Positions 57,166 to 64,000 of a stretch of 64,000 nt of DNA are shown in pieces (the first letter of the stretch is position 1; every line of letters starts with the position of its first letter). The notes beneath the pieces were generated by a model. The model made no database searches. It was not told where the DNA came from and was given only the letters and a program-made list of their open reading frames with translations. Both the position numbers and the translations under genes were made by a program. Source of the stretch: a virus; UHGV virus genome UHGV-0060643. One strand, given 5' to 3'.

Positions 57166-59274
57166 ATGATACTACGTGAATCGGACTGGCGTTATTATCC
57201 AGGCGCTATTGTTGACGATAAAACAACAAACAAATCCTTTATCAAGTTTGCTAACTTACTGAAAAAACTGGGTGTCAAACACTGGTATATTCACCTGGCG
57301 TTGCATAACCCACTGTTGCAGGGCGTAGACCCGTTCGATGAAAACCTTTCAGAACAGATGAAGGCATACATCGCCATCGAATGTGCTGAGAACCCGTGGT
57401 ACTGGTTCAGGGAATGTGTCAGGGTGCCTGCGGACGGTATGAAGTACGGTTCCCCGTTCCGTATCGACCGTGGTAACTTCTCGATGTACTGGATTTTCTT
57501 TAACAACATCGACGTTGCTGTCGAGTTCTTGCGTCAGCACGGTAAAACCGTCGGGATGAGTGGTTTACTGCTGTGGTTGATTCGTTTCTTAGAAAACTCC
57601 CGAACAATTCTTATCACAAAAGGCCCGGCACTGCGTGAAGAAACTATCAACAAACTGAAACAACTTCGTAACGGTTTACCGAGTTACCTCTGGCCAGCGC
57701 ATCCTGATGACCCAGATAACCGAGAAACCTTTGCGTGTTTAGCTCAGGGTAATAAACTGATTACAGGTATCGGCCAAAACGACCCAGAGTCCGCTAACGG
57801 TATCGGTCGTGGACTTACTGCTGGTCGTCTGTTCTCGGACGAAGGCCCCTTTACCAAAAACGTACACCACATTCTACCGGCAGCGCTGGCATCCGGTACA
57901 GCGGCACGTCGTATTAACGAAGCGGAAGGTGTTCCTTACGGTAACGTATTCGCAACAACCCCTGGTGACTTAGCGACGGAAGAAGGCAAGTACATGTACG
58001 AGCTGATGACGTCAGGGATTATGTGGGATGAGCGCTATATCGACATTCCAACCCGTAAACAGCTCATTGACATCATCCGTTCTAACTCCACGGCAGAAGT
58101 CCCACGTATCATGTTCTACGTGAAGTACAACCACCGTCAGCTCGGGACCACAGATGAACAGTTAGCGGCAATGATTGCGAACGCCAAAGGTACCCCTGAC
58201 CAGATCCGTCGTGACTTCGGTGGCGAATGGACGACCGGTGGTCTGAACAAGCCGTTCTCAGCGGAAGATGCAGATCGTATGAATGCTTCACGAATGCGTG
58301 CAGTGTTCAAAGATATCTCGCCACAAAACTACGTTACCGACTGGTACTACACCGAAGAAGAAATGATGATGAAACTCAAAGATCGTCATGTCATCGGTTT
58401 GGATACCTCCGAAGCCGTAGGTCGAGATGCGATCGCCATGTCCATCGTCAACTCAGTCACGGCCGAGTACGCCGGTAAGCTTACCGTTAATGAATCCAAC
58501 GTTATTTCGTTCGCGATCCATTTAGCGGATTTTATGGTGCGATATCCGAACACGGTACTGATTCTGGAACGACGCTCAACAGGCTCATCCGTTGCAGATG
58601 CGGTTATCCTGCAATTGCAATCACGGGTACCCGATTTACACCGTCGTTTGTTTGTGCGAATCACCCAGGACTACTCGCGTACGGACGATCTCTACAAAGA
58701 GTATCACCGTGGCCCAGTGGGGAGCGCAGAGAAATTCTGGAATAAATTCCGCAAATACATCGGGTTCTCAACCGACCAGGAGAAACGTCGTAAACTGTAC
58801 GGTGAGGTATTCACCACCGCGTTGCGCTTGTCTGCCGATAAACTCCGTTGTGGAGAGCTCATCGACCAAATTCTTAACCTCGTGGAGAAAAATGGTCGTA
58901 TCGACCACAAAGCATCCGGTCACGATGACCTTGTGATTTCTTGGTTACTTGCGATGTGGTTATTGCTACTTGGGAATAACTTAGGACATTACGAGATCAA
59001 CAACAGCCGATTGATGATGCGTAATCGTAACTTGGCAGAAAACCGGGAAGGGGTGGACGAAGAGTTACAGCTCGAAGAGGAAGCGCGACAGCAAAAACTG
59101 ATGGGGGAAATTGAGCAGTTAGTGAGAACGACTCACGGGTTACTCGACCCGGTTCAAGCAATGGCCGCTCGTAACCGACTTCAGGCCCTCATCTCTCAAC
59201 TTAACACTGATACACAAAACGTGGCGTCAATGGAAAGCTTGAGAGAGCTTCTCCAACGCCAGAGGATGAAGTGA
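57166..59274 (+). CDS. terminase large subunit (T4 gp17-like)
   Basis: deviant Walker A LRQHGKT (T4 gp17 SRQLGKT) and C-terminal nuclease motif GHDDLVISWLLAMWLL (T4 YHDDLVMSLVIFGWL). Confidence 0.8.
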   Translation: MILRESDWRYYPGAIVDDKTTNKSFIKFANLLKKLGVKHWYIHLALHNPLLQGVDPFDENLSEQMKAYIAIECAENPWYWFRECVRVPADGMKYGSPFRIDRGNFSMYWIFFNNIDVAVEFLRQHGKTVGMSGLLLWLIRFLENSRTILITKGPALREETINKLKQLRNGLPSYLWPAHPDDPDNRETFACLAQGNKLITGIGQNDPESANGIGRGLTAGRLFSDEGPFTKNVHHILPAALASGTAARRINEAEGVPYGNVFATTPGDLATEEGKYMYELMTSGIMWDERYIDIPTRKQLIDIIRSNSTAEVPRIMFYVKYNHRQLGTTDEQLAAMIANAKGTPDQIRRDFGGEWTTGGLNKPFSAEDADRMNASRMRAVFKDISPQNYVTDWYYTEEEMMMKLKDRHVIGLDTSEAVGRDAIAMSIVNSVTAEYAGKLTVNESNVISFAIHLADFMVRYPNTVLILERRSTGSSVADAVILQLQSRVPDLHRRLFVRITQDYSRTDDLYKEYHRGPVGSAEKFWNKFRKYIGFSTDQEKRRKLYGEVFTTALRLSADKLRCGELIDQILNLVEKNGRIDHKASGHDDLVISWLLAMWLLLLGNNLGHYEINNSRLMMRNRNLAENREGVDEELQLEEEARQQKLMGEIEQLVRTTHGLLDPVQAMAARNRLQALISQLNTDTQNVASMESLRELLQRQRMK

Positions 59275-61015: not shown

Positions 61016-62140
61016 ATGAGAAATTATCTGCGCAAACCTGCTTGGCACAAGATGTTGCGTGAAGGTACCATCGACCGCGAACAACAAGTCAAGATGTGGG
61101 TGCTTCCTCACGGCGTGATTTGTGACCTGGACAGAGTCGGTGGGATGGACATCCTGCGTAACGGTACTTACGACGCCGTCAACTCGTTCTTAGCACGAGA
61201 ACTGGCGGAAGCAGGGTTACAAGGCGAGGTGTTATTTTACACCACCCGTGTTATCCCACAAACGCTGTCTAAGTGGTTAACGTACTGGCTGTCTAGTGAC
61301 CCTGACGCATCAGACCCCGAACTCAGTTCGGTAACGATTACCACACTAGGCCAGTATCCCACGAAACCCTTGCCTTTCCAGGTGAACGTTGTTGAGCCAT
61401 TAATCGTAAAAGCCGGTGACGTATTTGACATGATTAAAGTCAAATCCCGTAACCAAGCCGTTTCCCAGTTTATCATCGAAACGGGTGAACACACATTCCG
61501 ATTAGAACCTGTCCGTAAAACCGATGCGACGCTTTTGGCCGTAACGGATTACGGAATCGTTTGTCGTTCTTCCGAAGGACACACCTTCCTGTGCACGATA
61601 CTCTCACGACGTATTCAGGCACAGTTAGAACACTACAAACTTTCCCTGGAAGACATCGTCGGTACGACGTTACGTATCGAATACACGATGTACACGGAAG
61701 GGAATCGGCTGTGTAATTACAAGTCCCCTATCGCATACCGAGCGTTAGCGCTGGACAACATGGGAGACTGGGTCTCAACGACATACGAAGGGCCTTCCCC
61801 GTTCAAAACCATTCCAACACAACGACCGGCGTTATTGACCGTTACCCGCTGTAACCGTGCCGAGATTTTCGAGGAAGGGGGTGTGATTTCCGGTTACGAA
61901 CGTGAAACAGGGTTAACGCTTTTCCGCTTCCGACGGGGTGCGGAGTACGGTCGCTATGCAGCGGTATTCGAACGAGACGGTAAGCAAGAAACCTGGCTTT
62001 TCGAATCGGATTTCTCCGTTGAGGTGATTGACCCTGAAGGCTTTGTGGCTTCAGTGGGGAGTCAGATTTTCTACGCCACGGGCTACAGCCTGTTGGAGGT
62101 AAAACTGCACTACCCTCAGAAAGAACAGGTCTGTCCGTAA
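61016..62140 (+). CDS. hypothetical protein
   Basis: ATG 61016 with RBS aaaggag (track start 60983 is an upstream GTG). Confidence 0.65.
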   Translation: MRNYLRKPAWHKMLREGTIDREQQVKMWVLPHGVICDLDRVGGMDILRNGTYDAVNSFLARELAEAGLQGEVLFYTTRVIPQTLSKWLTYWLSSDPDASDPELSSVTITTLGQYPTKPLPFQVNVVEPLIVKAGDVFDMIKVKSRNQAVSQFIIETGEHTFRLEPVRKTDATLLAVTDYGIVCRSSEGHTFLCTILSRRIQAQLEHYKLSLEDIVGTTLRIEYTMYTEGNRLCNYKSPIAYRALALDNMGDWVSTTYEGPSPFKTIPTQRPALLTVTRCNRAEIFEEGGVISGYERETGLTLFRFRRGAEYGRYAAVFERDGKQETWLFESDFSVEVIDPEGFVASVGSQIFYATGYSLLEVKLHYPQKEQVCP

Positions 62141-62150
62141 AAAAAATATC

Positions 62151-62190
62151 GGGTGGCTTCGGCCACCTGTTTTTTTTTTATTTTTTTTTT
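62151..62190 (+). terminator. intrinsic terminator with unusually long T-tract
   Basis: gggtggc ttcg gccacc hairpin followed by tgtttttttttttatttttttttt. Confidence 0.65.
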
Positions 62191-62884
62191 GCCAAAAAAA
62201 CTTCGACCTCCTCAGAGCGATTCTAACGCATTTTTAGGTCGAGGTGGTACGTTCGTATACCCTGGGTGAGTTTTTCTCGTTAGAGAGCTTCTCAGGAAGA
62301 ATTTGACGGGGTTTTATTCCCTGTCGAAGAATTTATTTTAACCCAAACCGCAACAAACCCCAAAACCGGGTGCTGGATTGTCTCTGGAAACCCTATCCGG
62401 TTGGTGATTTTTTAACCGGATTTCGTAAAACGCTCTAGAAACGATTTTAACGCGGTTTTTACCCCTACCCAGTACACTTGGGTTACCTGACCCCGTTTAG
62501 CGCGATGTGGAGCGATTGAGAAAGCGTACGACCCCTTGCCGGGGGTGGGTGAGACCCGACCCTGCCACCCGACGGCCAGCCGCCGTGCCGATCAAAAAAA
62601 CATTCACGCTTCGCGTACTAACGGATCAAGTGATTGGATCAACGTTTTGAATCTTCACACACTGAAGATTCAAGTTGAGTAGTTATCTTGCTTGGTTTTT
62701 TAAATACTCTCGAGAGACCTCAAGTCTCTCGGATCGATCTTAAAAATTTAACTCTCTCAAAAACCTGATCTCAAGATCTCTTCCTTATACGCGTGTGCGT
62801 GCGCACACGTATAGTATAATATATTTATTTATAAACTAAAAACAGAAAATATATTCAAAACATCAAATATTTCTTTAACCCTGC

Positions 62885-63960
62885 CTATCTCTTCAGCAAC
62901 CCGATCTTCAGGTTCAGCTTGAAATAGTAAACTCCATTCTCCCGCTCCAGATAACCATATTTATCTTTCTCGGTAGAGCCTTTCTCCAGGCGGCTGTTCT
63001 GGAAAAGGAAATCGGCAAAAGTCTGACGGAAAGCACGCTGATAACACAGCACTTCTCCCTCGCCGGTCACAAACAGAAAACCGCAGATGGCCGAGTCGGT
63101 GCCGTTGTATAATTTGGCCGGACGCATACCCGTAGCCAGTGCCAGCAGCAGTTCCTTGATCTTATATTCATAAAATCCATGCTTGCTGATCAGCTCATCC
63201 TTGATCTTGAGCGGATTCAGTTTCTTCAGTTCTTCAGTCAGTTCAGACACTTTCGTAATGCCGTCGAGCCACATCAGACGCGTCATTTCAGCCAGCAGAC
63301 GTCCCATGTGCAGGTCGATCATCGAAAGGTTGCTGCGGAAAATCTTGTCGGCCACGTCATTGTATTTCAACGCTCCTCCCAGACGCTCGATCATCAGCAT
63401 ACGTCCGATGACATCGTCCTCCTCGCCATACGCATTGATCTTGCTGACAGTAGGCGTGGCAAAACGGACACCGGTCTGCTCAAACTTGAAGTTCGCAGCC
63501 CGCCCTCCGTCCATAAGAGGCAACATCATTCCCAGGCGCGAGCGTACACAAAAGCCGGTGAGCGGAGCATCCACCGAATAAAATGCCACACTGAAATCCG
63601 TGCGGTCGTCGGTCTTGGCCTCAAGGTCGAAAATAGCCACCTCATCGAGGAACTCCTCCACCCCGTCGGGCGAAGTCACCTCGTCCTCCCGGCTGTTGCG
63701 GATTGCCTCCAGCACCAGGTCGGCCACCGTTCCGAAATCTTCACGCGGGATATGCTTGTCCATATTCTCTCCGACAATATGGATTTCCTCCTTCTCAATG
63801 ATATAACGACGGGTACCGTCGTGTTCTTCGCGCTGCACCATTGCAACCGGCAGGCTGACCGCCTCGTTCGCCGTCACTTCCGGTGTTCCGGCAGCTACCT
63901 TTCCGTCTGCCAGCAGGCGAAAGAACGCATACAGTTCGCCCCATTCTCTCTTACTTGCTT
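62885..63960 (-). CDS. hypothetical protein with foreign codon usage; possible PD-(D/E)xK nuclease (restriction-endonuclease-like), unverified
   Basis: 358-aa ORF from ATG at 63958-63960 (MAFEASKREW...); GAG/AAG/GGA/CGC-rich codons unlike the rest of the window; motif EFLDEVAIFDLEAK could be D...ExK; family not identified. Confidence 0.6.
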
Positions 63961-64000
63961 CAAATGCCATATCTCTAAATTCTGTTTTCGGGGGCAAAGG

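Follow-up and report, generated by a model that had tools for sequence, protein, structure and literature searches.

A compositional break at the tip of a gut jumbo-phage contig is most probably an assembly join between a conserved non-coding phage module and Phocaeicola restriction-endonuclease alleles

The window analyzed here, a stretch of 64,000 bp, comes from a human-gut assembly, in which it forms the final 64 kb of a contig of 225,879 bp; its position 64000 is the end of that contig. The same contig is held in ENA as ERZ1304834 NODE_11_length_225879_cov_10.159602, the last 12,985 bases of which are identical to the tail of the window; its SPAdes-style name puts the average coverage at 10.16. 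As far as about 62.1 kb, the DNA is 73-75% identical to that of the Erwinia phages Asesino, Stratton, and phiEaH2 and of SPN3US-like Salmonella phages, and the gene for the terminase large subunit (57166-59274) and the neighboring virion genes are arranged in the same order as in these Erwinia and Salmonella relatives. These similarities place the phage among the SPN3US/Asesino-like jumbo phages found in gut metagenomes, and because its DNA is about 74% identical to that of Erwinia and Salmonella phages, its host is predicted not to be a member of the Bacteroidales. A near-identity DNA search of positions 61500-64000 against GenBank phages returned no match, such that a distant search mode was needed, and a tRNA scan of the window found none. 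The last phage gene in the window (61016-62140, plus strand) encodes a 374-aa homolog of Asesino gp284 and SPN3US_0263, relatives of which were taken from IMG/VR and an assembly index.

This gene is followed by a bidirectional intrinsic terminator (62150-62190) that consists of a GC stem with a TTCG loop, preceded by an A-run and followed by a T-run. The stem-loop CGGGTGGC-TTCG-GCCACCTG occupies 62150-62169, the T-run extends to 62190, and the element scores on both strands. An earlier reading of the window, made from its letters alone (hereafter the sequence-only reading), had placed this terminator at 62151-62190 and had described the DNA beyond it as a hairpin-rich region that lacks open reading frames (ORFs) and includes a GC-rich island; this description holds with slight shifts in coordinates. 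No ORF of at least 60 aa is present in 62141-62884 (745 bp before the stop codon at 62885), the sole ORFs there encoding 47 and 48 aa. The GC island, previously put at about 62520-62600, corresponds to 62516-62591 (71% GC) and includes a helix in which 62540-62548 pairs with 62565-62574 (within 62540-62574). Two of the reported inverted repeats are perfect: hairpin 1 (62647-62673), with 11-bp arms and the loop CACAC, and hairpin 2 (62711-62731), with 8-bp arms and a 5-nt loop. The alternating purine-pyrimidine near-palindrome TATACGCGTGTGCGTGCGCACACGTATA is likewise present (62786-62813) and is about 89% identical in Salmonella phages, where it lies at the left edge of an AT core. Three perfect hairpins with a stem of at least 8 bp were seen versus 0.09 expected from 500 dinucleotide shuffles (P = 0.004). 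Additionally, seven GATC sites are clustered within 189 bp (62590-62778), forming the left half of a cluster that surrounds the AT core, and the densest 200-bp GATC window of the 64 kb (62581-62780) includes these seven sites versus four in the next best. A further block with the core AAAACGCTCTAGAAA (62426-62459) is the best conserved of this stretch among related phages. It was also observed that 32 of the 34 bases at 62426-62459 match the terminal-repeat, pre-early region of T5-like phages.

Beyond the ORF-free stretch lies a minus-strand ORF (62885-63970) that encodes 361 aa from its ATG. The strand and the coordinate 62885 had been given correctly by the sequence-only reading, which had the gene end at 63960 with 358 aa. 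The suggestion that the product is a nuclease was borne out by a full-length match (residues 7-358 against positions 2-359 of the 359-position profile) to Pfam PF09561, the HpaII restriction endonuclease family, with an E-value of 1.7e-132 and a score of 442.5 bits versus a curated cut-off of 25, which assigns it to the HpaII family of type II restriction endonucleases. R.HpaII cuts CCGG. The closest relatives are all from Bacteroidales (Phocaeicola, Bacteroides), and the nearest protein cluster (96% identity) bears the name HpaII family restriction endonuclease and is from Phocaeicola faecicola. A search of the PDB by sequence returned no relative. It should be noted that the retrieved homologs are all at least 75% identical, and residue conservation is consequently uninformative about the candidate catalytic motif D...ExK that had been suggested in the sequence-only reading. 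In eight long Phocaeicola contigs, the endonuclease gene has the surroundings of a regular chromosomal gene: an ion-channel gene lies upstream, an MFS transporter gene downstream shares a 4-bp overlap with its end, and infC, rpmI, and rplT are found nearby. No methyltransferase domain was detected among the genes called within about 6 kb of the endonuclease in these eight contigs, nor is there a partner methyltransferase, as a type II system would be expected to have, next to it in the window, which ends 30 bp upstream of the gene.

The codon usage of this gene is foreign to the phage, as had been proposed. Among 49 ORFs of at least 150 aa, it is the sole one that is nearer to Phocaeicola genes than to phage genes; it has a GC3 of 0.64 and prefers AAG over AAA, GAG over GAA, GGA over GGT, and CTG (28 codons) over TTA (1 codon), although the reported preference for CGC is not seen (11 CGT versus 8 CGC). 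Further, the tetranucleotide composition of 62836-64000 is the farthest from the phage mean among 205 windows (z = 4.2).

The change from phage to bacterial DNA falls on an exact 21-mer (TATAATATATTTATTTATAAA, 62815-62835) that is present in both phage and Phocaeicola. The 22-mer extended by one base to the left occurs in phage contigs only and the 22-mer extended to the right occurs in bacterial contigs only, and the two parents overlap by exactly these 21 bp. On the phage side, two other assemblies of the same phage, Ga0495776_008976 (L012; 224,831 bp) and ENA ERZ28595873 scaffold_27 (224,801 bp), encode the identical 374-aa protein in mid-contig. The window matches Ga0495776_008976 with 0 mismatches and 1 homopolymer gap over the 11,820 bp that end at 62835, after which the two diverge: the latter continues with about 150 bp of almost pure A/T (the AT core), followed by about 880 bp of non-coding DNA and then phage genes, and both of the other assemblies read on into the AT core and the phage genes beyond. 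By this match, the ORF-free sequence at 62141-62814 is assigned as authentic non-coding phage DNA, the left arm of an intergenic module of about 1.74 kb (L012 11126-12867). It should be noted that JGI record 3300045988 pools several assemblies and that the intact phage contigs may come from another physical sample. On the bacterial side, similarity to Phocaeicola starts at 62815 and runs rightward. Positions 62836-62884 represent the 3' flank of the restriction gene (minus strand) of the Phocaeicola coprophilus type, and a 30-mer over the stop codon of the gene is found in P. coprophilus DSM 18228 and in 11 human-gut contigs. Both parents are on record unjoined, the phage in L032 and L033 (intact contigs with the identical 374-aa protein) and the Phocaeicola chromosome in contigs L004-L011 and L016-L027.

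A second junction lies within the endonuclease gene itself, where 29 bp (63261-63289) are identical in two Phocaeicola alleles and the parent switches from one to the other. Positions 62815-63289 differ from the P. coprophilus type by 2 mismatches in 475 bp, and positions 63261-64000 differ from P. faecicola-type chromosomal contigs by 2 mismatches in 740 bp; over the opposite half, each parent is only 70-87% identical to the window. The encoded protein is thus a hybrid, its C-terminal part being of the P. coprophilus-type allele and its N-terminal part of the P. faecicola-type allele, and this exact hybrid is on record on this contig only. The final 30 bp (63971-64000, minus strand) are the 5' flank of the P. 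faecicola-type gene, and the contig ends there. The second crossover could instead reflect a natural recombinant Phocaeicola allele.

The position of the first junction coincides with a recurrent difficulty in the assembly of these phages. The same AT core terminates at least four further metagenomic contigs from related phages. One of these (3300045988_113438) is bounded by it on both sides, with its last bases at the left edge of the core and its first bases immediately to the right, near GCTCTGACCCCC. Contig 3300014543_000002 ends at the equivalent of window position 62827, contig 3300045988_095954 starts inside the AT core, and contig 3300031419_000082 stops immediately beyond its right edge. 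In this phage clade, the extreme-AT core is a systematic, recurrent assembly breakpoint. Moreover, when the foreign 1,165 bp are subtracted from the 225,879 bp of the contig, the phage part amounts to 224,714 bp, approximately 100 bp shorter than the two intact assemblies, and this shortfall fits a whole genome opened at the AT core.

These observations indicate, with a probability of about 93%, that the compositional break is an artifactual join at the tip of a metagenomic contig and that the phage genome itself has no such break. The actual phage sequence would run from 62835 into the extreme-AT, low-complexity core of about 150 bp, which short-read assemblies of this clade repeatedly fail to cross, leaving a dead end. 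There, at about 10x coverage, the contig would have been extended via the chance-shared, AT-rich 21-bp word into the 3' flank of the Phocaeicola endonuclease gene and then via the 29-bp word common to the two Phocaeicola alleles, stopping 30 bp upstream of the start codon. A word length of 21 is the smallest k in the default SPAdes and metaSPAdes series. The junctions and their parents are observed directly, and from the SPAdes-style contig name we infer that the join arose in the assembly graph. Among the explanations put forward in the sequence-only reading, an assembly chimera is the one favored by the two exact-word junctions, the intact parents on both sides, and the location of the join at a contig end. 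A genome terminus, another of these explanations, is rejected because two other assemblies of the same phage and the GenBank relatives read straight through the region, and the start points of the GenBank records, including bp 1 in SPN3US-like phages, are set by convention, through alignment, and are not mapped ends (PMC6256631).

Two further accounts of the break accept the junctions as physically real. Template switching during PCR, or ligation at library preparation, could have produced a chimeric molecule in vitro that was then faithfully assembled, and template switching does make use of brief identities between templates, of the kind seen here in the 21-bp and 29-bp overlaps. A rare chimeric molecule would not normally outweigh the true paths in the graph, however, and two switches within 1.2 kb, at a dead end shared with other assemblies, fit graph walking better, making an origin in the library improbable. 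The 21-bp microhomology would also fit, in principle, illegitimate recombination. The other account is a real phage variant that acquired a Phocaeicola HpaII-type endonuclease beside its large intergenic region. Phages sometimes carry nucleases, the ORF is intact and full-length, and the join is located in non-coding DNA, where an insertion would be tolerated. Yet the sequence is 99.6-99.7% identical at the DNA level to two different Phocaeicola alleles with no drift toward phage composition, the relatives of the phage infect Enterobacterales and thus hosts of the wrong phylum, and only one side of the supposed insertion exists, the contig ending 30 bp past the gene. Further, there is no accompanying methyltransferase, the gene is missing from genomes that are otherwise identical, and the join falls on an exact 21-mer within sequence at which other assemblies also break. 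Given the wrong host phylum, the absence of compositional drift, the single junction, and the identical genomes without the gene, acquisition by the phage is very unlikely, close to negligible in probability; the gene is taken to be Phocaeicola chromosomal DNA, contrary to the earlier suggestion that it had been acquired horizontally by the phage. A misjoin at the contig tip remains the preferred reading, and it has practical consequences. The contig is public in ENA and JGI and the chimera can therefore spread as an error: at face value, an enterobacterial jumbo phage would be credited with a Bacteroidales restriction enzyme, feeding false claims of cross-phylum transfer, a false prediction of Phocaeicola as host, and a false phage restriction (defense-type) gene. 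Contig tips at the AT core of this clade should accordingly be trimmed or checked.

With the bacterial DNA set aside, the ORF-free stretch can be compared with its counterparts in related phages. The same large gene-free gap interrupts the gene order at the corresponding point in SPFM4 (about 1.75 kb), SPAsTU, pEa_SNUABM_29, phiEaH2, Asesino, Wellington, and pEa_SNUABM_11, and the architecture of the left arm is shared with the phage contig L013, SPFM4, SPAsTU, SNUABM29, phiEaH2, and Asesino. In SPN3US, the counterpart is an unannotated intergenic region that spans bp 1 of the GenBank record (JN641803: 239883-240413 joined to 1-1185). The secondary structures are retained in position and pairing despite changes in sequence. 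In the GC-island helix, five pairs are swapped on both sides in L013/L014. Hairpin 1 is located 185-224 bp to the left of the core across lineages and is formed by five different, but always perfect, stems of 10-11 bp with the loops CACAC, CTCTC, or TCTC, and hairpin 2 similarly keeps its position, 95-144 bp left of the core, while its stems in L013, SPFM4, phiEaH2, and Asesino are unrelated. The palindrome block TTCCTTATACGCGTG...CGCACAC is likewise conserved, every relative examined has an AT core, and in these relatives 6-14 GATC sites occur within 300 bp of the core versus 0.6-2.6 per kb in the flanks. Within the 240-kb genome of SPN3US, no 100-bp window other than the AT core has a GC content of 12% or less, and the module holds the densest 600-bp GATC window, with 10 sites versus 6 in the next best. 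The comparison identifies the ORF-free stretch as the left arm of a non-coding SPN3US-like module with stems, a GATC cluster, and an AT core, which is present in a single copy and is conserved in three phage genera.

The role of this module is most likely control at the level of DNA, as a putative replication origin or packaging start. The sequence-only reading had proposed a replication or packaging locus for the region as a whole, which is plausible for the ORF-free part but not for the endonuclease gene. More specifically, it is tentatively suggested that the module may serve as the replication origin and/or packaging start of SPN3US-like, nucleus-forming phages and, in addition, may include a previously undescribed structured RNA; it carries a covarying, RNA-like plus-strand motif about 800 bp to the right of the AT core. 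The literature searched includes no description of an origin, a pac site, or a non-coding region in SPN3US-like or nucleus-forming phages. For this group, the module offers a well-defined candidate for a site that controls replication or packaging. It is possible that the ORF-free region and the missing right half together form a replication origin, in which the AT core would unwind and the GATC clusters and hairpin repeats would flank it. Such an origin would be in keeping with the uniqueness of the core in SPN3US and its location in the top GATC window of that genome, with the single-copy state and conservation of the module, and with stems that are kept by compensating changes and are perfectly Watson-Crick paired in five lineages; genes for a putative adenine methylase and an RNase H are also present in SPN3US. 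However, no DnaA boxes were found (no TTWTNCACA in 21 kb), nor were clear iterons, since the direct repeats detected beyond the AT core were weak and limited to two copies. GC skew is uninformative on this point because it follows the coding strand, the cumulative skew of the whole SPN3US genome rising almost monotonically with it. A pac region, at which headful packaging would be initiated in a manner similar to P1 pac with its GATC clusters around the cut site, seems unlikely. The gene for the terminase large subunit is close by, 2.9 kb upstream of the region, GATC clusters lie on both sides of a central core, and the SPN3US-like family is held to package by a headful mechanism (PMC6256631). 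Against this, the location of bp 1 of GenBank records in the region reflects a convention and not a mapped end (PMC6256631), and the repeats are not built on the P1 hexamer TGATCA/G, the GATC sites that flank the core on both sides occurring in mixed contexts (GGATCAA, GATCTC) and not as one hexamer.

The alternative that the ORF-free region encodes a structured non-coding RNA, or carries transcription signals, is somewhat unlikely, and the evidence on folding is divided. Single-sequence folding of the left arm far exceeds that of shuffled sequences on the plus strand (z = -9.1) and less so on the minus strand (z = -3.5), a motif on the plus strand of the right arm shows G-U pairs as well as compensating changes, and the upstream operon is closed by the bidirectional terminator. 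When four relatives were folded to a consensus, on the other hand, the minus strand did at least as well (-121 versus -105 kcal/mol) and no strand preference emerged, and a covariance search returned no Rfam family at gathering score in the end of the window (61900-64000) or in the full module (L012 11100-12900), where all matches were sub-threshold (E = 0.07-0.77). The two main hairpins are without wobble pairs in any lineage, which suits DNA palindromes. Because of this lack of wobble pairs and the at least equally good consensus fold of the minus strand, the left-arm hairpins lean toward palindromes that would act at the DNA level. For the right-arm motif, which corresponds to SPN3US coordinates 1064-1145, a role as the leader of a conserved gene was considered and rejected, as the genes downstream are unrelated between lineages.

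The break, the gene, and the module can each be set beside a known system. Chimeras between genomes that arise in de Bruijn graphs are resembled by the break in its near-100% match to a different organism on each side, in the short exact-word overlaps (21 and 29 bp), and in the location of the join at a contig tip, in low-complexity sequence, and at low coverage (about 10x). It differs in being a double chimera, from phage to one Phocaeicola allele and then to a second, and in that the behavior of the assembler is deduced from the contig name. The break is accordingly a textbook inter-genome misjoin, slightly unusual in being double. The endonuclease is similar to members of the HpaII family (PF09561) in its full-length profile match and its 96% identity to the P. 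faecicola member, and differs in being a two-allele hybrid with no adjacent methyltransferase. By that match, it would be an ordinary HpaII family member, although an artificial hybrid in this contig.

The ORF-free stretch is most similar to the region in SPN3US and to its counterparts in Seoulvirus, Erskinevirus, and Wellingtonvirus, which are found at the same place, after the SPN3US_0263/0264 homolog. Their shared layout comprises a GC island, hairpins in which changes compensate one another, the TATACGCG...CGCACAC palindrome, GATC clusters, the AT core, and, at a distance of 770-890 bp rightward from the core, a conserved motif; in Wellington, where an HNH gene is inserted, this distance is 1,382 bp. 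Differences from the window include that only short blocks can be aligned (75-89% identity) and that the AT core measures about 148 bp in this phage versus 53-120 bp in the counterparts. Further, the right half of the region is cut off in the contig under study, with bacterial DNA in its place, such that only the left edge of the core is left. Beyond these phages, the closest parallels are Escherichia coli oriC and the pac site of phage P1, in which an AT-rich or cut region is flanked by clustered GATC sites. The module differs from oriC in having no DnaA boxes and from P1 pac in that its repeated unit is not the P1 hexamer. What it has in common with them is a unique AT-rich core with clustered GATC sites around it (6-14 within 300 bp on either side in these phages), in phages whose hosts methylate GATC.

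On its plus strand, the right arm of the intergenic module carries an RNA-like motif that is conserved and structured, located at positions 12743-12824 of L012, a stretch of the intact assembly of the same phage. This arm lies beyond the window, and the motif is not present in the window itself. Its core reads GGCTCG..A(N)AGACGAGAGGGGTG, and the structure includes a loop of the GNRA type along with numerous G-U pairs. Among 11 phages from three genera, 18 consensus pairs were identified, five of them with compensating changes, and about two cells of the pairing were broken. A search of Rfam returned no match to the motif. Each genome encodes a single copy, including SPN3US (L038, 1064-1145) and Erwinia phage Wellington (L044, 1801-1874), and the genes 3' of it differ from lineage to lineage and are unrelated, indicating that the motif is part of the module rather than of any gene. 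The motif is found 770-890 bp rightward of the AT core, with the exception of Wellington, where the spacing is 1,382 bp as compared to about 800 bp in relatives. Wellington's copy of the module has an inserted gene between core and motif, annotated as an HNH endonuclease (L044, 1260-1769).

Compared with the intact assembly over 11.8 kb, the window departs from it at a single point: the T-run of the terminator (window 62170-62190 versus L012 11155-11175) differs by one base in length, a homopolymer discrepancy of the kind typical of assembly or sequencing noise. JGI record 3300045988 includes two near-identical 225-kb copies of this phage (contigs Ga0495776_060651 and Ga0495776_008976) as well as a contig identical to an ENA SPAdes contig. 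The JGI "sample" is evidently a pool of contigs from several assemblies and, therefore, co-occurrence in this record does not equate to presence in the same physical sample. Assemblies break systematically at the AT core: four metagenomic contigs from related jumbo phages (3300045988_113438, 3300014543_000002, 3300045988_095954, and 3300031419_000082) start or stop there, and one of these four has both of its ends at the core. Contig tips at the AT core are worth checking for bacterial add-ons similar to the Phocaeicola DNA joined here. In Phocaeicola, the HpaII-family endonuclease gene (L004, 6001-7086) occupies the same setting across eight chromosomal contigs (L004-L011): an ion-channel gene lies upstream of it, and its end shares 4 bp with an MFS transporter gene. 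No methyltransferase domain is encoded by any gene called on these contigs up to about 6 kb away, and the endonuclease is apparently a solitary restriction gene.

Should the GATC cluster and AT core of the module serve in replication control, two annotated genes of SPN3US would be relevant, namely those for a putative DNA adenine methylase (SPN3US_0105; L039, 46875-47669) and a putative RNase H (SPN3US_0207; L041, 31783-33297).

Within the left arm, conservation is highest in a 34-nt block, TAAAACGCTCTAGAAACGATTTTAACGCGGTTTT, at window positions 62426-62459, which matches T5-like Klebsiella and Serratia phages at 32 of 34 bases. In the T5-like phages, the block lies inside the terminal repeat predicted by PhageTerm and in, or at the edge of, a non-coding gap upstream of the pre-early genes, with a short predicted ORF in Slocum reaching over the final bases of the block. 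Sequences flanking the block are unrelated between the window phage and the T5-like phages. The block could represent a common host-factor site or a promoter element.
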